A model generated the notes under the pieces. That model made no database searches, was not told the DNA's origin, and saw only the letters and a program-made list of their open reading frames with translations. From contig JADLCI010000001.1 of assembly GCA_020847275.1 (NCBI GenBank), positions 2,540 to 66,539 on the forward strand: a stretch of DNA of 64,000 nucleotides. Reading direction: 5' to 3'. A program made the position numbers and the translations under genes. This document shows, piece by piece, positions 1 to 19,521 of this stretch; within the stretch, counting starts at the first letter, position 1, and the number at the start of each line of letters is the position of its first letter. This stretch comes from Candidatus Nomurabacteria bacterium (GTDB lineage: Bacteria > Patescibacteriota > Minisyncoccia > Phycocordibacterales > JACOZG01).

Positions 1-975
1 CATGGCAACCTCCCTGTGGGCAACGAGTAATTCACGCAGAATTTCGGGCAAGCGCTCTGCCCTCTCGTGTGTGGCTAGACTTCTAATTGTTTTCACTTCA
101 TCTGTGCTCAAGTTCTTCAGCCACTCTTCCTGATTATTTTTATCCAAGCGCACCAGCAAGGCGAGCCTAATCTGGCGCAAGAGTAACCTGATCAGAGTTT
201 TAACATCTTGATTTTTCAGGCTACTCGCTCGGACTTTCTCGAGTGCTCGTTCTAAATTCTGATCCAGAATCGCGCCGGCCAGATCCCGCACCAGATGCGC
301 TGGCGGAGCGCCAGTTACCAGCTCGGCTTCGGCGAGAGTAATCTTGTTATCTGCGGAGGCACTCATTGCCTTCTGCAGGAGACCAACAGCGTCACGGAAG
401 GAACCATCGCCGAGAAGCGCAATTAATTCCGCCGCTTCGGTTTCTAATTTGAACTTTTCTGACTTTGCAATCTGAAGCAACAAGGTCTGGATTTCATTCT
501 GACTGGGCTTGCTGAAGGTGAAAGTCTGACAACGAGAAATAATCGTTTCCGGTACTTTATTCAACTCCGTGGTCGCAAAAATGAAGACAACATGCGCCGG
601 CGGCTCTTCCAATGTTTTCAGAAGCGCGTTCCAAGCATCGCGCGTGAGCATATGAACCTCGTCAATCAGGTAAACTTTCCGCGGAGAACGAAAGGGCATC
701 GTGCTTACGCCCTCTCGCAACATGCGAACCTCGTCAATGCCACGATTGGAGGCCCCATCGATTTCGTATAGATCCTCTGGCATCACCTCGAGCTCACTGG
801 CCAATATTCGAGCAACAGAAGTTTTCCCCGTACCCCGAGAGCCGGCGAATAAGTAAGCGTGGGAAACATTATTAATCCGTAATGCTCCCTCCAGCACCCT
901 GATCACCGACTCCTGGCCAATAACTTCGGAAAATTTGCTTGGTCGATATTTACGATAAAGGGCAAGTTCGGACAT
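1..975 (-). CDS. dnaX: DNA polymerase III subunit gamma/tau (runs off the window start)
   Basis: Manual translation from ATG 975: MSELALYRKYRP...GSRGTGKT...EIDGASNRGIDEVR...IDEVHML...NALLKTLEEPP...TIISRC; absent from the ORF track. Confidence 0.95.
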   Translation of the reverse strand, partial: MSELALYRKYRPSKFSEVIGQESVIRVLEGALRINNVSHAYLFAGSRGTGKTSVARILASELEVMPEDLYEIDGASNRGIDEVRMLREGVSTMPFRSPRKVYLIDEVHMLTRDAWNALLKTLEEPPAHVVFIFATTELNKVPETIISRCQTFTFSKPSQNEIQTLLLQIAKSEKFKLETEAAELIALLGDGSFRDAVGLLQKAMSASADNKITLAEAELVTGAPPAHLVRDLAGAILDQNLERALEKVRASSLKNQDVKTLIRLLLRQIRLALLVRLDKNNQEEWLKNLSTDEVKTIRSLATHERAERLPEILRELLVAHREVAM

Positions 976-3177: not shown

Positions 3178-5574
3178 CTATAAAATAATCAACTTGCCAC
3201 CCAAGAACTCGATCCGCGTCCCCGCTCCAACCTCACCACTAATTATTCTATCCGCAACAGCCTGCTCAACCTTATCCTGAATAAAGCGGGCCAATGGCCG
3301 AGCACCAAAAACTCGATTGGTTCCGGCGTCGGCCACACGATTAATCAGATCATCATTGAGTTGCAGCTCGATGCCCTGAGTCCTCAATCGGGCAACTAAG
3401 CGATTAAGAAGTAGACGAGCAACCTGAAATAGTTCCGCCCCGACCAGTGGATGGAAGATCACAATCTCATCGAAACGGTTGAGCAACTCCGGCCGGAAAA
3501 GTGACCGTTTGATAAGGTGGTTCACCAACTCATCCCGCGCGGTGCTTGGGTCACGCCCCGCCTCTACCATCTCCCAGATCATCTCGGCGGCGGCATTAGA
3601 GGTCGCGATAAAGATGATATTACGCGTATTGACTCGACGACCAAATGCATCAGAGAAAAACCCTTCGTCCAGAATCTGAAGAAACAAGTTAAGCACCTGC
3701 TGACTGGTCTTCTCAAACTCATCCAAAAGTAGAACCCCGTAAGGGTTCTGCCGTAGAAGATTAGCGAGTATCCCCTGTTTATTTTCGGCAAAAGAGCCAA
3801 TCAGACGATTCAAGGCATCATCTGATTGATATTCCGACATATCTAGCCGCAAAAGCGCCTCCTCGCGCCCGAAAAGTGTCCGCGCTAACGCCTTTGCTGT
3901 TTCCGTCTTACCGACGCCAGTTGGCCCCAAAAAAAGAAAACTGCCGATCGGGCGCCCGCGGTTCGCCGTACCCGCACGACTCCGACGAAGCGCCTGACTA
4001 ATTGCTCGTAAAGCCACCTCCTGGCCGATCACTTGATGTTGTAAATTTTGTTCCAAACTCAATAAAGATTCCCGTTCTAAAACAGAAACCGAACCAGCGG
4101 GGATCTTCGTTTTCTGACTGACAAAGGCCAAGACCTCTTCTCGCCCGATAATCTTCTCCCCACTACTCACCGCCCAAGGCACTAACTCCACCAATAAATC
4201 AAGGGCTCGGTCACTGATTGAATCTGTCTGGAAATATCGTCCAGCACTTTCAACCAAAGAAACAAGGGATTGGTAGGTAAAAAAGATTCCCAGCTTCTTT
4301 TCAAAATTTACCGCCACTTCCTCGAGAAAAATGATTAAACGCGACTGGTCGATTTCTGTCGCACGAATAACCTCGAAACGACGGGCTAATTCGGGCACAC
4401 CAGCAATTGACTGTTGATAGGAATCCGTGTCGACAAGAGCAATAATCGGTAAAATTGCCGCCCCAAGATACGGATCGAGAAGCGAGGTTAATTCGCTGCC
4501 AAGTCTCCGCGCGCCAGCAAGCAAAACAGCGAGATCATCAATTACCAAAATCGTATTACCCGACTTGGCGGCCTCATTCATGATCTGCAAAACTGTCTGC
4601 TCAAAAGTGCCGCGCTCTCGATGGTCAGCAATCAGCAGGGCGGCGTGGAGAAGAACCGGGCGGCGGTGTTCTAGGGCCGGCACTACGAAACCACTCTTAA
4701 TTTCATTCGCCAATTGCCAAATTATATCCATCTTTGACTCCCCTGCGGGCCCAACAATAAGCGCATTTGATTCTTGGCTACGCAGGAGGACATTCTCCAA
4801 CTGTCGAACCTCGTCGCGACGCACCGTGGCGGTCTGCCGAAAGCCACTTGATTGTGGTGCCAGCAATAAATCTTCACTGTAACGATCGAGGACAAAGGTC
4901 TGTCCGAAAGACCAATCCTTAGCCAAACCAGGAATTCTTCCCAAACTCTCACGACTCCACCAGCGCTCGGCAAGAGCCTTGCGCTCAATCTCACTCACCA
5001 CCCAAGCAACCGCGCCAACCAATTCCGGCTGATTGATCTCGTGGCGGAAAAGGAATTTGGCAAAATCTTCATTGTTGGAATAAATCCAGTCCGCCAACTT
5101 GGCCAAGGTTAGCGGTTCAGCGCCCGCGAGAGAGAGGGTGGGCAGATTCTTTTTCTGTGGTCGTGTCTGAAGAAAAGATCGGATCTCCGTATCCATCACC
5201 CCAAGACGTCTTAAAACCAAATTTCCCGTCTTGGATAACATAAAAGCCGTCAGAACATCCTCATCTTTATTTCTCAATCGATACAAAATACGCCCAACCG
5301 TAAAGGTGAAGAGATCCTCACGCCGATAACGATTAGTAATGATGCTAGAAAAATAATAAGAACGGAAAAAAACCTCAAGGAGGTGAAGCATCAGAATTGC
5401 CGTCGCGAGAATAAGCACCAATCCCAACCATCGAGAAGTCTGATCGAGAGACAAGAGCAATGCGAGTGTCATCACCTCCACTACCCAACGAAGAAATCGT
5501 CGGTCGCGACGGGAAATCAGGTTCTCCAAAACAAGAACTGGGTAAAGTCGACTAGATTTTATTCTTTCAAACAT
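3178..5574 (-). CDS. Membrane-anchored ClpA/B-family AAA+ ATPase
   Basis: N-terminal hydrophobic helices; NBD2 [22 protein letters not shown] and FRPELLNR intact; NBD1 degenerate. Confidence 0.85.
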   Translation of the reverse strand: MFERIKSSRLYPVLVLENLISRRDRRFLRWVVEVMTLALLLSLDQTSRWLGLVLILATAILMLHLLEVFFRSYYFSSIITNRYRREDLFTFTVGRILYRLRNKDEDVLTAFMLSKTGNLVLRRLGVMDTEIRSFLQTRPQKKNLPTLSLAGAEPLTLAKLADWIYSNNEDFAKFLFRHEINQPELVGAVAWVVSEIERKALAERWWSRESLGRIPGLAKDWSFGQTFVLDRYSEDLLLAPQSSGFRQTATVRRDEVRQLENVLLRSQESNALIVGPAGESKMDIIWQLANEIKSGFVVPALEHRRPVLLHAALLIADHRERGTFEQTVLQIMNEAAKSGNTILVIDDLAVLLAGARRLGSELTSLLDPYLGAAILPIIALVDTDSYQQSIAGVPELARRFEVIRATEIDQSRLIIFLEEVAVNFEKKLGIFFTYQSLVSLVESAGRYFQTDSISDRALDLLVELVPWAVSSGEKIIGREEVLAFVSQKTKIPAGSVSVLERESLLSLEQNLQHQVIGQEVALRAISQALRRSRAGTANRGRPIGSFLFLGPTGVGKTETAKALARTLFGREEALLRLDMSEYQSDDALNRLIGSFAENKQGILANLLRQNPYGVLLLDEFEKTSQQVLNLFLQILDEGFFSDAFGRRVNTRNIIFIATSNAAAEMIWEMVEAGRDPSTARDELVNHLIKRSLFRPELLNRFDEIVIFHPLVGAELFQVARLLLNRLVARLRTQGIELQLNDDLINRVADAGTNRVFGARPLARFIQDKVEQAVADRIISGEVGAGTRIEFLGGKLIIL

Positions 5575-7710: not shown

Positions 7711-8577
7711 ATGTCTGCAATTAATCGTCTATCCCCAGACACTTTCCCGCCCCAACTCCGAGAAATACCCGAACCACCAAAAGAATTATACCTTGAGGGC
7801 GCTTGGCCAAGCCCAGAAAGCGTTCTTGTGACGATTGTCGGTTCACGCAAGTATTCCAATTATGGTCGAGAAGCCTGCGAAAAAATCATTAGCGAACTAT
7901 CTGGATATCCAATCGCCATTGTCTCTGGTCTGGCGATTGGCATTGATACAATTGCGCACAAGGCAGCGCTGGCGGCAAAACTCTATACACTCGCTGTTCC
8001 AGGTTCTGGCCTCGAACGCCGCGTGCTCCACCCGGCCTCCAACCGCCAGTTGGCTGACCAGATCCTAGAATCCGGTGGAGCACTCTTATCAGAATTTCCA
8101 CCGGAATACCCAGCCGGACTTCATACTTTTCCCCGACGCAATCGAATCATGGCTGGACTCGCCAATGCCGTTTTAATAATAGAGGCTGGTGAAAAGTCAG
8201 GCACACTTATCACCGCGCGACTGGCAACTGATTATAATCGTGATGTCTACGCTGTTCCTGGCTCTATTTTCTCTGCCGGTTCCGTTGGTACAAATAACCT
8301 AATCCGACAGGGCGCGACACCAATCATGAGCGGTGGTGACCTGCTTACAGCACTTGGATTTGAATTACCAAATGAGTCTGCGCAACAAAAACTAAACCTC
8401 GATGAACTCTCCGAACCGGAGAAGAAGATTTACGAAATCTTAAGCGTGGAATCAATGCACCGCGACGAGCTCATCCGTATTCTAGAATTACCAACCAGTG
8501 AAGCCAACTCTCTTCTCGGTATTATGGAAATTAAGGGAATTATCAAGGAAACGATGGGTGAGATTAGATTAAATTAA
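7711..8577 (+). CDS. dprA: DNA-processing protein DprA
   Basis: IVGSR, VSGLAIGIDTIAH, FPRRNRIMAGL, SGTLITA, C-terminal winged helix. Confidence 0.96.
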   Translation: MSAINRLSPDTFPPQLREIPEPPKELYLEGAWPSPESVLVTIVGSRKYSNYGREACEKIISELSGYPIAIVSGLAIGIDTIAHKAALAAKLYTLAVPGSGLERRVLHPASNRQLADQILESGGALLSEFPPEYPAGLHTFPRRNRIMAGLANAVLIIEAGEKSGTLITARLATDYNRDVYAVPGSIFSAGSVGTNNLIRQGATPIMSGGDLLTALGFELPNESAQQKLNLDELSEPEKKIYEILSVESMHRDELIRILELPTSEANSLLGIMEIKGIIKETMGEIRLN

Positions 8578-8717
8578 AAAACGGCTCAGGAAAGGAGGTC
8601 CTGAGCCGTGGTGCCGCGAACAAGTGCGTCAGCAATCGTGTCTTGGCCATCGCGGGGGTATCTAATCCCCGGAATCTACCTGTGACACGGCGCCACACAA
8701 ATTCAACGAACGACACC
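8576..8717 (-). ncRNA. Candidate structured sRNA carrying 16S-like motifs
   Basis: Promoter TTGCAA-17-TAGACT (8752-8724), nested helices, 11-bp terminator stem with T-run, no SD-led ORF. Confidence 0.55.
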
Positions 8718-8787
8718 AATACCAGTCTAACACAAGTAAGACAAATTTGCAAAATATGAGCATCCATAGTACTAATTAGCGAAACTT

Positions 8788-10968
8788 ATGAAATTGCTCA
8801 TTGTTGAATCGCCAGCAAAAGCGAAAACGATTTCAAAATACCTGGACGGTGAATATACCGTGCGGGCAAGTGTTGGGCATATTCGTGATTTACCAAAATC
8901 AAACAAGAATGCGATTAATATTGCAGATGGTTTCGTACCGCATTATGAAATCTCACCAGGAAAGGAGAAGGTGGTGAAAGAGTTAAAGAGTTTAGCAAAG
9001 CGGTCAGAGAAAACCTTGCTCGCAACAGACCCCGACCGCGAGGGTGAGGCAATTGCTTGGCACATTAAGGAAGCAATCGGGCTGAAGAAACCAGAACGCG
9101 TCGTTTTCCACGAAATCACAAAGGAGGCGGTACAAGAAGCCATGAAACATCCCCGCCAGATTGATGAAAATCTTCGCTCCGCCCAAGAAGCACGGCGAGT
9201 GCTGGACAGATTGTTTGGCTACGATCTTTCTGGATTGATTTGGCAGAAATTACGCTACGGCCTATCGGCCGGAAGAGTTCAATCTCCGGCCCTACGAATC
9301 CTTGTGGAACGTGAACGAGAGATTAAGGCCTTTGTTCCAGAAAAATTTTGGGTGATAGAAGCGCTCCTTACCACAAAGGATGAAACCGAAATCAAGTTCA
9401 CCTGTACGGTTGAGCCGAAAACGGGCGAAGAGGCGGCGAAAATCGTAGATCTGAGTCAGAAAAGTGATTGGCAAATAGATACCGTTAAACAAAGTGAGGC
9501 CAAGCGAACAGCCCGAGCACCATTTACCACCTCCACACTTCAACAAGCTGCTAGTTCGCGACTAGGCTATTCACCATCAATCACCATGCGGCTCGCCCAG
9601 AAACTTTACGAGGCGGGGCATATTACTTACATGAGAACGGACAGCACCAATCTGTCGCAACAGACGCTTGGTGAGATTGCCACGGTGGTGAAGGATCGGT
9701 TTGGTGATAAATATTACACTCGCCAGACCTATGCGACAAAAAGCAAGAACGCCCAGGAGGCCCACGAGGCCATCAGACCAACTCATCCCAATACCACAAA
9801 GGTTGGAAACTCCGCACAAGAAGAAAACCTATACCGTCTAATCTGGGCCCGAACAATTGCCAGCCAGATGAGCGCCGCTGAAATTCTAAAAACAGAAATT
9901 ATTGCCCGGCCACAAAATCCAGAAATTCCTGACTTCAAGACCACGGGTTCGGTAATCACTTTTGCCGGTTGGTTGGAAGCTGACCCAGATGCCCGTGGTG
10001 AAGATCTGGAATTACCAGAAATCGAGAGTGGAGAAAAACTAAGATTGAAAAATATCGAGTCGCTTGGCAAAGAGACCCAGCCACCAAGACGATATTCCGA
10101 AGCTGGTTTGGTAAAAGAATTGGAAAAGCGTGGCATTGGTCGACCGTCAACCTATGCCCCAACGATTAAAACAATCATCGATCGTGGCTATGTTGAGAAG
10201 GAAGCCCGAAGCTTAAAGCCGACAGAAACCGGAGAAGTTGTAAGCACTTTCCTGGAACAATATTTTGCGTCCTATATTAGTGATGACTTCACTCGCGAGA
10301 TGGAGGACAATCTCGACCAAATTGCCAGCGGCGAGCGTGAGTATGTAAAGACGTTAAAGGACTTCTATGGCCCCTTCAAGAAAGCGGTGGCTGAGAAAAA
10401 AGACATTCCCAAGATTACAAACCTTGGTGCTGCCCCAGAAGAGACGCGGTGTCCCCTTTGTGTCGGACCAATGATTATCAAACTGGGTCGCTCGGGCAAG
10501 TTTTATTCCTGTGCCAAATTTCCCGACTGTACTGGCGCCCGCAAACTTACTGGTGAAGAAATGTCGGGACCAAAGGAGACTGGTGAATCATGCCCGGAAT
10601 GTAAGGACGGGAAGCTGGTAGAACGAGACGGAAAATTTGGCAAATTCATCGCCTGTGCCAACTATCCGAAATGTAAGTTTATAAAAAAAGACCCCGAACA
10701 GGAGGCGAAAAACGACACCGGAATCCAGTGTCCGAAATGTAAAAAGGGAACAATGGGAGAACGGCGTGGGCGCTTCGGCATCTTCTATGGCTGTTCCAAT
10801 TATCCGGCCTGTAAAAATATCATCAAAACCAAACCAACTGGTAAACTCTGTGATATTTGTGGCGCCCTGATGATGACCGGGACCAAAACCATCCCTGATC
10901 GTTGTTCAGACAAAACCTGCGTTAATCACAATCCACACAAAGTTGAGAAGGCTAGCACGAAGAAGTAG
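8788..10968 (+). CDS. topA: DNA topoisomerase I
   Basis: IVESPAKAKTI, ATDPDREGE, SAGRVQS, ITYMRTDS, C-terminal Zn ribbons. Confidence 0.98.
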   Translation: MKLLIVESPAKAKTISKYLDGEYTVRASVGHIRDLPKSNKNAINIADGFVPHYEISPGKEKVVKELKSLAKRSEKTLLATDPDREGEAIAWHIKEAIGLKKPERVVFHEITKEAVQEAMKHPRQIDENLRSAQEARRVLDRLFGYDLSGLIWQKLRYGLSAGRVQSPALRILVEREREIKAFVPEKFWVIEALLTTKDETEIKFTCTVEPKTGEEAAKIVDLSQKSDWQIDTVKQSEAKRTARAPFTTSTLQQAASSRLGYSPSITMRLAQKLYEAGHITYMRTDSTNLSQQTLGEIATVVKDRFGDKYYTRQTYATKSKNAQEAHEAIRPTHPNTTKVGNSAQEENLYRLIWARTIASQMSAAEILKTEIIARPQNPEIPDFKTTGSVITFAGWLEADPDARGEDLELPEIESGEKLRLKNIESLGKETQPPRRYSEAGLVKELEKRGIGRPSTYAPTIKTIIDRGYVEKEARSLKPTETGEVVSTFLEQYFASYISDDFTREMEDNLDQIASGEREYVKTLKDFYGPFKKAVAEKKDIPKITNLGAAPEETRCPLCVGPMIIKLGRSGKFYSCAKFPDCTGARKLTGEEMSGPKETGESCPECKDGKLVERDGKFGKFIACANYPKCKFIKKDPEQEAKNDTGIQCPKCKKGTMGERRGRFGIFYGCSNYPACKNIIKTKPTGKLCDICGALMMTGTKTIPDRCSDKTCVNHNPHKVEKASTKK

Positions 10969-16842: not shown

Positions 16843-19521
16843 TTAGGCCGTAGACACAAGCCGTTTACCATTCGTTCGTAGTGTCCGTTTCTTCAATTCA
16901 ATTACCGGCTCACCATTCTTCATTTCTACCACGAGAACTCCCCCACTCTCGATTTTCCTCCCAATAATAAACTCCGCGACTTGATTAAGAATTTTATTTT
17001 GAATTAAACGCTTGAGCGGACGCACGCCATATTCAGAACTATAACCCTCGCGAGCGAGATAGGCCATTGTCTCCGTTGAGACTTCCAATTTGATCTGCTT
17101 GTGTGCTAAACGCCCCCTCACCAGCTGAAGCTGGATATCCACAATCTCCTTAATCGTCTCGGCCGGTAGCGGGTTGAAGATAATGATGTCATCCAGGCGG
17201 TTCAAGAATTCCGGGCGGAAGTGATTCTTAAGACTTTCCATGATGCGCTGTTTAGTTTCATTGTAATCAGTCTTCGCCGTGCCGTCACCACTAGAGAAAC
17301 CAATCTTTTGAAGTCGTTGGATATACTCACTGCCAATATTGGACGTGAGAATAATAATTGTGTTCTTGAAATTGACGACGCGACCCTTGCCGTCCGTAAG
17401 ACGGCCATTATCCAGGACCTGAAGTAAGATGTTGAAAACTTCCGGATTCGCTTTCTCAATTTCATCGAAAAGTAAAACGGCATAGGGCCGATGACGCACC
17501 GTTTCGGTCAATGACCCGCCCTCTTCGTAACCCACATAACCTGGTGGTGAACCGATAAGTTTGGAGATAGAATATTTCTCCATATATTCACTCATATCAA
17601 TCCGCACCAACGCCTTCTCATCGTCAAACATAAAGTGAGCAAGAGTACGAGCTAATTCGGTCTTACCAACACCGGTTGGGCCAAGCAAAATAAAGGAGCC
17701 AATTGGTCGATCTGGATCACCCACACCCGCGCGTGAACGCTTGACCGCCTCGGCGATTTTCTTAATTGCCTCATCTTGTCCACGAACCCGTTTGCGCAAC
17801 TCATCTTCAATCCGCGTCAGTCTCTGTGATTCTCCCTCCAACATTTTCGTCACCGGAATATGAGTCCAGCGCGCCACCACTTTGGCAATTTCTTCATCCG
17901 TTACTTCTTCCTTCAGAATCCGCCTGGAACTCTGCAGTTTCTTAAGCTTTAATTCCTTGACCTTCAAATCCTTCTCCAGCTGAGGGATTTTGCCATAACG
18001 AATCTCGGCCGCATGAGAGAGGTCGGCCCGCCATTCCGACTGTTCAGCCTCCAGGCGCGCCGTCTCTAAATCACGCTTCACCACTTTGATTTCGGAAATT
18101 ACCTCTTTCTCATTTTTCCACTTTAACTCCAATTCACGGACCTCTTCGCGGAGATCACTAACCTCTTTCTCAATCTTCTTAATCCTGGCCCTAGTTTGTT
18201 TATCATCCTTGAGAGATAGCTCTTTTTTCAATGCCTCCTTCTCAACCTCCAAACGCATAATCTTAGTATCCGTTTCCCCCAAGAGTTCTGGTTTGTTTTC
18301 TAGTTGTAAGCGAAGGGCTGAAGCCGCTTCATCAACCAGATCAATTGCCTTATCGGGCAGAAAGCGATCACTGATGTAGCGGGCAGAGAGCTGGGCCGCG
18401 GCAACAATTGCGCTATCGGTAATATGAACACCATGATGTGACTCGTAACGCTCCTTCAATCCGCGCAAGATCGTAATTGCGTCATCAACTGAAGGTTCTT
18501 CCACATGAACAGGCTGGAAACGACGAGTAAGTGCTTGATCCTTCTCAATATATTTCTGGTATTCCTTAATCGTTGTCGCCCCAATCGCCCGCAACTCACC
18601 TCGCGCCAATGCCGGCTTGAGCATGTTGGAAGCATCAATTGCCCCCTCAGCCGCACCAGCTCCCACAATCGTATGAATCTCGTCGATAAAGAGAATAAAC
18701 TTGTTACCAGAACGTTCTAGTTCTTTCAAAACCCCCTTCAATCGTTCCTCGAATTCACCACGATATTTTGTACCAGCGACAATCAAACCGAGGTCAAGTG
18801 AGACTAGCTCTTTATCTCGTAAAGATTCAGGTACATCATTTTTTGCAATCTTGATTGCTAAACCCTCCGCAATTGCCGTCTTTCCCGTTCCCGCTTCGCC
18901 AATCAGAATCGGGTTATTTTTTGTCCTTCGAGAAAGAATCTCCATCAAGCGTTGAATTTCCTCCTCTCTCCCAATGACCGGATCAAGCTTATCCGCCTTC
19001 GCTAATTCCGTTAGATTTTTTGTAAATTTTTCGATATTACGAAACTTCTTTGACTGGTCTACTTCATGTGTCTGGCTCATCCGCAACTCCTGCAAAACCT
19101 TCAACACCCTTTCCTTTGTCACACGGAAACGGGCCAGAATCTCGTGGGCTTGATTTGGTGTCTCGAGAAGACCAAGCAGAAGATGCTCCGTGGAAACAAA
19201 CTCGTCTTGCAAATTAGCGGCAATTTTTCCGGATGTATCAAAAACTTTCACCAATTCTGGTGTTAGATAAATCTGGTAAGCCGCCGAGAGTACCCCTGTC
19301 TGCTCACTACCCTCAAGACTTTCCACGACATAGTCTGTCAGCATTGCCGTGTCCACCTCAATTTTATCCAAAATGGAAACAAACATACTTTCCTCCTGCA
19401 GAAGAAGAGCGGCCAAGAGATGAACCGGGCCGACCTGATTCTGACCCCGCTCAATAGCGAGTTCATGCGTCTTCCGAATTACCTCTTTCGCTTTCGCTGT
19501 GAAGTTAGAAAATGGTGGCAT
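16843..19521 (-). CDS. clpB: Chaperone ClpB
   Basis: Clp-N repeats, GEAGTGKT, coiled-coil middle domain, [17 protein letters not shown]. Confidence 0.9.

Follow-up and report, generated by a model that had tools for sequence, protein, structure and literature searches.

A predicted small RNA with an exact copy of the 16S helix-24 loop between dprA and topA of a Candidatus Nomurabacteria bacterium, and the recurrence of this loop in non-coding RNAs of the order

The dprA-topA insert and its predicted transcript

The window analysed here is the whole 64,000-nucleotide stretch of contig JADLCI010000001.1 of Candidatus Nomurabacteria bacterium, whose 537-kb genome is 95.6% complete. The genome size, an SRP54 gene that was not found, and relatives' 16S without an anti-Shine-Dalgarno sequence suggest a Parcubacteria-type member of Patescibacteria. 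The dprA and topA genes of this window are separated by a gap with an insert of about 170 nt, for which a small RNA gene is predicted on the minus strand. The features of the locus, in window coordinates, are as follows.

7711-8577, plus strand: dprA, left flank of the insert (Pfam PF02481)
8575-8717, minus strand: predicted 143-nt small RNA, a 108-nt irregular rod followed by an intrinsic terminator (from folding; start inferred 7 nt past the -10)
8575-8580, minus strand: U-tract, overlapping the dprA stop codon (from sequence)
8581-8609, minus strand: intrinsic terminator with an 11-bp stem (from sequence and fold)
8592-8598, minus strand: 7-nt terminator loop CCUCCUU, the canonical anti-Shine-Dalgarno (anti-SD) word, read as AAGGAGG on the plus strand (from sequence and fold)
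8610-8617, minus strand: closing helix, 3' arm, just ahead of the terminator (MFE and centroid)
8637-8642, minus strand: inner helix, 3' arm, partner 8684-8689 (from fold)
8655-8669, minus strand: apical hairpin, 15 nt identical to the tip of 16S helix 24 (against relatives' 16S; 13-mer at 8656-8668, 9-nt 790 loop at 8658-8666)
8684-8689, minus strand: inner helix, 5' arm, partner 8637-8642 (from fold)
8702-8711, minus strand: boxA-like word, a generic leader feature of the genome (promoter-linked copies against control)
8710-8717, minus strand: closing helix, 5' arm (MFE and centroid)
8724-8732, minus strand: extended -10, TG-N-TAGACT, on the insert, the -10 itself at 8724-8729 (from sequence)
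8746-8776, plus strand: conserved topA promoter block (kept in relatives)
8747-8752, no strand assigned: palindromic TTGCAA, the -35 of the topA block and possibly common to a divergent small-RNA promoter (11 of 11 relatives, with an insert or none)
8788-10968, plus strand: topA, right flank of the insert (Pfam PF01131)

The gap was compared in 11 relatives and its content is different in each of them. In four it is empty (64-69 nt), and in the others it contains ORF cassettes, hairpins, or different non-coding promoter-to-terminator units. The gap is an insertion hotspot. In this comparison of homologous gaps, as proposed in the first-pass annotation, none of the 11 gaps holds the candidate RNA, leaving its own loops without homologs. 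The insert is not an assembly artefact, since contigs from three of four public DNA runs cover the gap mostly or fully with 0 differences.

Orphan structured non-coding promoter-to-terminator units are present in the gap of two relatives (L006:1290-1505 and L035:2935-3160, both on the plus strand), without an Rfam match or a conserved rRNA 11-mer. Two further ORF-poor structured intergenic units lie behind promoter-like sites of this genome (G000:C7:165937-166230 and C7:208129-208462), and no conserved rRNA 11-mer was found in six other non-coding stretches, two from relatives' gaps and four from this genome.

The promoter motifs, boxA-like word, 13-mer hairpin, and terminator described earlier for the minus strand are all present there by sequence. 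The extended -10 lies on the insert itself, and a 17-nt spacer separates TTGCAA from TAGACT on this strand; however, this TTGCAA is part of the promoter block conserved in front of topA, being found in 11 of 11 relatives, four of them with an empty gap, and is therefore not independent evidence for a minus-strand promoter. The topA promoter block itself (TTTGCAA, spacer, TACTAAT, in all 11 relatives) has a -10 unlike TANNNT at 17 nt. A similar -10 and boxA frame stands upstream of an ORF in one relative (G009, L004).

The word at 8702-8711, which we take to be boxA-like, was found by a looser scan behind six promoter-like sites of the genome against one for the reversed control (a stricter first scan gave 1 of 40 promoters). 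Only one of these six copies is the rrn leader, so the word does not mark rRNA likeness and the earlier use of boxA as such evidence is not supported.

The 145-nt fold is more stable than expected (z = -5.2, matched by 0 of 200 shuffles), and the 108-nt rod by itself gives z = -2.6, with 2 of 300 shuffles as good, while the antisense rod folds 10 kcal/mol weaker than the sense one. The 790 loop is apical in the predicted fold with a closing-pair probability of 0.97. The two nested helices of the first-pass annotation fared differently: the inner one is present, but the outer one is an alternative pairing that includes one mismatch (C-A) and overlaps the inner arm by 2 nt, and its place is taken by the closing helix 8710-8717/8610-8617, in which the first 8 nt of the full-length transcript pair with the stretch directly before the terminator. 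Chance alone would produce the 13-mer 2e-6 times in one strand of 143 nt and 0.017 times in a whole genome.

Relation to known RNA families and to the genomes of relatives

By BLASTN against 60 relatives no homolog of the RNA body was found, the matches being the topA promoter block, the -10/boxA frame, or the 16S 15-mer. A single-sequence covariance model detected the element in 0 of 30 family genomes and 0 of 150 order genomes; its best scores were 20 bits on unrelated hairpins (68 pattern loci) and 17 bits (31 sister and gap loci). Phage and plasmid searches for the candidate RNA gave no match, and when viral and metagenome contigs were scanned by pattern, the matches listed (at least 50 in the metagenome scan) were all attributable to chance. 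In four low-GC viral contigs (L040, L042, L054, and L055) the 13-mer occurs together with an anti-SD word, which is broken in L042; these were taken as chance.

The Rfam search that had been called for produced no family over its gathering cut-off, the best score being 19 bits against a cut-off of 50. The 16S similarity of the element is limited to the 15-mer, since 216-300 of 300 flank shuffles equal the real flanks against relatives' 16S. A decayed 16S fragment was accordingly rejected, no collinear 16S similarity being found past the 15-mer. By its sequence the candidate RNA is a member of none of the families tested.

A 108-nt rod with internal loops is reminiscent of 4.5S RNA, and neither SRP RNA nor 6S RNA was found in the genome, which would leave room for a diverged housekeeping RNA of one of these types. 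Like the bacterial small SRP RNA (RF00169), the candidate is an irregular rod of about 110 nt with a closing helix at its ends; in contrast to it, the candidate has a 9-nt apical loop instead of a tetraloop and is not conserved in kin. The RF00169 model gave no match in the genome at E <= 10, and a gene for Ffh/SRP54 was not found in this 95.6% complete assembly. The 6S RNA (RF00013) is about 180 nt long with a central bubble, as compared with the 108-nt rod, and its model also had no match in the genome. As no Rfam family came near its cut-off, SRP54 was not found, and the element is missing from the 30 family genomes, the housekeeping explanation is hardly probable.

The same very low probability is given to a small-peptide gene. 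Two small frames do overlap the element, one of 67 aa on the minus strand and one of 25 aa on the plus strand behind AAGGAGG, but neither has a Pfam match, and the 67-aa frame gave only partial matches (E >= 0.008) in 5 of 30 genomes and has its start codon upstream of the predicted transcript. On the plus strand of 8592-8685 AAGGAGG stands 9 nt upstream of the GTG that opens the 25-codon frame.

The helix-24 loop in other non-coding RNAs

When 400 other genomes of the order were searched with a pattern for the 790-loop hairpin that excludes the 16S context, 27 matches were obtained, as compared with 7 when the pattern was reversed (p = 8e-4). Twenty-one of the 27 lie outside stop-free frames of 150 aa and are non-coding by this cut, which was chosen after the data were viewed and separates frames of up to 139 aa from those of 333 aa or more. 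The loop is closed by at least 4 contiguous stem pairs, the first of them fixed by the search pattern, in 16 of the 21 non-coding matches and in 0 of the 6 coding ones (Fisher p = 0.0016). In 22 non-coding rows (21 distinct, the element included, unselected for pairing) 82.5% of cells are paired, compared with 57.8% after shuffling and 60% in the best slid control. Changes on both sides are seen in 36 cells of these rows and at 4 of the 6 pairs, and the covariation score is reached by 0 of 500 shuffles. The stems are unlike one another and unlike 16S, and the 16S-sense strand of the hairpins is fixed by G-U pairs.

The hairpin was found in 17 of 400 genomes of the order (16 strict and 1 with a mismatch), in 3 of 241 genomes from other orders of the class (p = 0.04), and in 1 of 284 from other classes (p = 0.001), enrichment tests that are inflated by kinship among the genomes. 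Independence is also incomplete in that L191 and L195 are near-identical and three matches come from a single genus. In 4 of the 16 stem-closed sister RNAs (L170, L179, L183, and L188) local folding favoured a different structure, with a closing-pair probability below 0.5. Since only about 4% of genomes carry the motif, it is dispensable.

The recurrence of the helix-24 loop in non-coding RNAs of the order is not chance. On sequence comparison the 790 loop is an exactly kept, recurrent module on freely covarying stems of order-level non-coding RNAs, the candidate's own scaffold being without homologs.

The loop could be an internal folding or stability module, T-loop-like or of the loop-receptor kind, and its identity with 16S would then be uninformative about a ribosomal partner. 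The motif can indeed be read as a variant of the tRNA T-arm (the label T-loop for the 790 loop being our assumption), two viral copies lie within tRNA-like elements, and in three sisters (L171, L191, and L195) the loop caps terminators. When loop positions 790, 793, and 794 were freed, however, the 23 matches in 301 genomes comprised 6 hairpins with the exact loop, 12 words from tRNA T-arms, 11 of which ARAGORN called as tRNAs, and 5 further variants, none of which is paired and each of which lies in a frame of at least 142 aa. Outside tRNA the exact 16S loop is therefore the sole loop seen on a stem. This result and the concentration of the hairpin in one order speak against a mere folding module, and in the consulted part of PMC2615604 the 790 loop is not named as a T-loop; this explanation is considered unlikely.

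The insert may also be a neutral orphan cassette, or a decayed rRNA fragment, with motifs that are chance or a functionless copy. The hotspot gap with different content in every relative, the failure to find homologs, and the expectation of about 0.017 chance 13-mers per genome with very many windows scanned are in agreement with this. The lack of 16S similarity past the 15-mer nevertheless leaves no decayed fragment, and the match is non-coding, apical, and stem-closed as in 16 sisters, whose non-16S stems still pair, which makes neutrality improbable.

The scaffolds of the sister RNAs are mostly unrelated to each other. One exception is the pair L192:1478-1640 (plus strand) and L194:1385-1540 (minus strand), two homologs that belong to separate families and lie at separate loci, both with the loop retained and with compensation in 8 of 34 pairs; these promoter-to-terminator RNAs are a candidate new RNA family. 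Unbiased searches revealed no homolog of L192 in the 28 further genomes from its family and none of L172 in 2.

Some sisters carry further rRNA-like sequence. In L174 (motif at 1505-1517), L176 (motif at 841-853), and L183:1505-1590, all on the minus strand, the 790-loop hairpin is accompanied by words that we take to resemble h23 (690 loop) of the non-CPR type. In L170:1490-1610 (minus strand), inside the rplE-rpsH region, an exact 24-nt stretch of 23S, presumably H69, lies 90 nt upstream of the hairpin. In L195 the 16S positions 107-310 are matched at 85 bits, over the cut-off of Rfam; L195:291-620 and L191:150-480 (both plus strand) are non-coding units of about 330 nt with the hairpin and a U-tract at the end, a miniature 16S mosaic. 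L179:1270-1700 (plus strand) is an insertion within a 23S rRNA gene with the hairpin and a complete tRNA gene, and L172:1690-1715 (minus strand) is a terminator-like hairpin with 17 of 18 bases matching helix 45 of the lineage's 16S. Overall, exact rRNA 11-mers are not enriched around the sisters (31 sense, 34 antisense, and 21 shuffled), and the claims on companion modules rest only on the long rRNA matches named for individual sisters.

The neighbours of the sisters are mixed: 4 sisters have a release-factor gene nearby, several have tRNA genes, 2 have genes for r-proteins, and none has infC. The four RNAs that adjoin a peptide release factor gene are L168, L173, L174, and L188, and this neighbourhood is a probable second insertion hotspot.

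In viral contigs one stem variant had 10 matches and the control 0, the control here being an imperfect look-alike pattern and not the exact reverse; a second stem variant had 12 loci, mostly coding. Three viral copies are noted separately: in L210 and L217 the hairpin lies between tRNA genes, and in L211 (motif at 401-417, minus strand) it lies inside a tmRNA match.

The anti-SD loop and candidate partners of the RNA

The probability that a given 7-nt loop reads CCTCCTT is 6e-5, and of 58 terminator-like hairpins found in this genome 1 has this loop. Among 19 sisters screened none has CCUCCUU as a terminator loop, so that it is unique to this copy. The paired-motif scan had at least 50 genome matches (47 of the 50 listed being 16S itself) and 2 viral matches, with no such RNA among the matches listed. 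Since the sisters are often modular, a second 16S-derived module is plausible, and the odds between it and chance are about even. From the original proposal of a 16S mimic, the exact 790 loop recurring on covarying non-16S stems in 17 of 400 genomes is retained; the boxA word and the -35 do not support rRNA likeness.

The anti-SD is absent from all 22 of the 16S tails read from the class, 11 from unselected family or order genomes and 11 from mimic-bearing genomes. The assembled part of this genome's 16S ends near position 707; tails and helix 24 were read in relatives. One mimic-bearing genome outside the class keeps the anti-SD. Anti-SD loss was tried as a mark of mimic-bearing genomes (11 of 12 tails) and rejected as non-discriminating, because the 11 unselected relatives lack it too. 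Such a loss is already known for a subgroup of Parcubacteria (Tsurumaki et al. 2022, PMC9297842), with which the present lineage agrees in its tails; the consulted part of that paper describes the rRNA trait alone, with no separate RNAs carrying 16S loops. In this genome an SD site (AAGGAG or AGGAGG) precedes 27 of 533 ORFs, AAGGAG alone occurring 24 times against 2 for its reverse complement, and the SD-led ORFs are GC-richer (49.5% versus 46.3%). The premise of limited SD use, on which the first reading of the locus was built, is thus borne out.

These data could be understood in such a way that the anti-SD loop is the working end of the RNA, pairing with the SD sites of about 27 SD-led accessory genes and either silencing them or handing them to anti-SD-less ribosomes. 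Besides the GC-richer SD-led set and the missing anti-SD tails, the best SD-led genes form bare duplexes of -16 to -23 kcal/mol with the loop region. However, these energies disregard the 11-bp terminator stem and are non-discriminating, as every SD can pair with every anti-SD; the element is lacking in L023, L035, and L036, which are relatives that have SD-led cassettes, and the loop occurs in none of the 19 sisters screened. Compared with base-pairing sRNAs, which have a conserved seed and specific targets, the seed is found in no sister and the pairing is generic. An SD-reading role is improbable. The broader suggestion of a general reader of SD-led cassettes fails, because kin with such cassettes are without the RNA, which none of the 30 family genomes searched contains.

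A highly improbable extension is that of a trans-acting stand-in for the lost 16S 3' tail. Its CCUCCUU loop would capture accessory SD sites and its h24 copy would engage IF3 or the subunit interface, thereby steering anti-SD-less ribosomes (or those of a host, if the RNA is exported) onto or away from these mRNAs, and the RNA would belong to a larger group of "ribosome-surface" RNAs assembled in modular fashion from rRNA loops.

The reading that we favour, with somewhat less than even confidence, is that the insert is a self-contained gene for the predicted 143-nt RNA, which may act as a 30S-platform decoy by titration of IF3 or another platform factor. A decoy for a sequence-reading partner is suggested because the loop is kept letter-exact on free stems in stand-alone RNAs. 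The rod of the predicted RNA would display the exact 790 loop, and the displayed loop would tie up a protein that binds it, most likely the C-terminal domain of IF3. With less IF3 free, joining to 70S might become easier, or the checking of start sites less strict, in a lineage with anti-SD-less ribosomes. In this scheme the fold is predicted, and we infer the transcription, the partner, and the effect.

IF3 is likely the best candidate partner. IF3, KsgA, RbfA, and HPF are encoded in the genome, and RsgA was not found over the cut-off. According to the consulted part of PMC3130014 the C-domain of IF3 touches the 790 loop, IF3 footprints appear at h23, h24, and h45, and the affinity for IF3 falls 10-fold when position 791 is mutated. 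KsgA, as described in the consulted part of PMC8216452, requires h27 and recognises the backbone of h24 at 769-771, not the 790 loop. Another platform factor is possible as a partner, since assembly-factor and initiation-factor sites overlap (PMC7145577, consulted in part). The binding of IF3 to an isolated hairpin may be weak, which is a point against the decoy.

The decoy may instead be directed against a ribosome attacker, such as a host, phage, or defence rRNA nuclease or a platform-binding antibiotic, and not against a housekeeping factor. The patchy distribution and hotspot insertion are consistent with this, as are the viral hairpins between tRNA genes (L210, L217) and in a tmRNA match (L211) and the further functional loops of sisters, for example H69. 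We know of no nuclease that cleaves the 790 loop, and defence genes are not consistently adjacent; moreover, the viral control was only a look-alike and the second viral scan gave mostly coding matches. A nuclease that cleaves eukaryotic H69 does exist (PMC13189344, consulted in part). An attacker as the partner is, on balance, somewhat unlikely.

Among known systems the candidate shares with 16S helix 24 (RF00177) the 15-nt identity, the 9-nt loop, and the G-C closing pairs, and differs in being a predicted free-standing 143-nt RNA with its own putative promoter and terminator and no likeness outside the 15-mer. The mRNA leaders of r-proteins (S15, S6:S18, and L20) mimic protein-binding sites of rRNA and act in cis on the downstream operon. 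The candidate is likewise a non-ribosomal RNA copying such a site, but it would act in trans, ends in a terminator facing dprA, with no downstream gene, and has no Rfam leader match. CsrB/RsmZ and 6S RNA are protein-titrating decoy sRNAs that copy the GGA loops of mRNA or an open promoter. As a predicted stand-alone sRNA whose hairpin loop displays a copied recognition motif, the candidate resembles them, whereas it copies rRNA, has patchy and orphan scaffolds, and has no Rfam match. Signals for its own putative promoter and terminator are present, the -35 being common to topA. As in such decoys, the motif is kept in a loop under selection, at class level only.

Free-standing RNAs that copy a functional rRNA loop are absent from Rfam, and no description of them was found in the mainly non-subscription literature, consulted in part. 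The loop represents a real, previously uncatalogued RNA module, whose function is speculative. If IF3 is titrated, this would be a new way of tuning translation initiation, and it bears on the choice of start sites by the anti-SD-less ribosomes of Parcubacteria, where an SD is still present at about 5% of genes. If the RNA is a nuclease decoy, it would point to a new kind of weapon that cuts rRNA in conflicts between host and episymbiont or with phages. One 9-nt loop on many natural stems provides a sharp and cheap test.

Elsewhere in the window two genes for Clp/Hsp100-type ATPases are located near each other (3178-5574 and 16843-19521), the first without a Clp_N domain.
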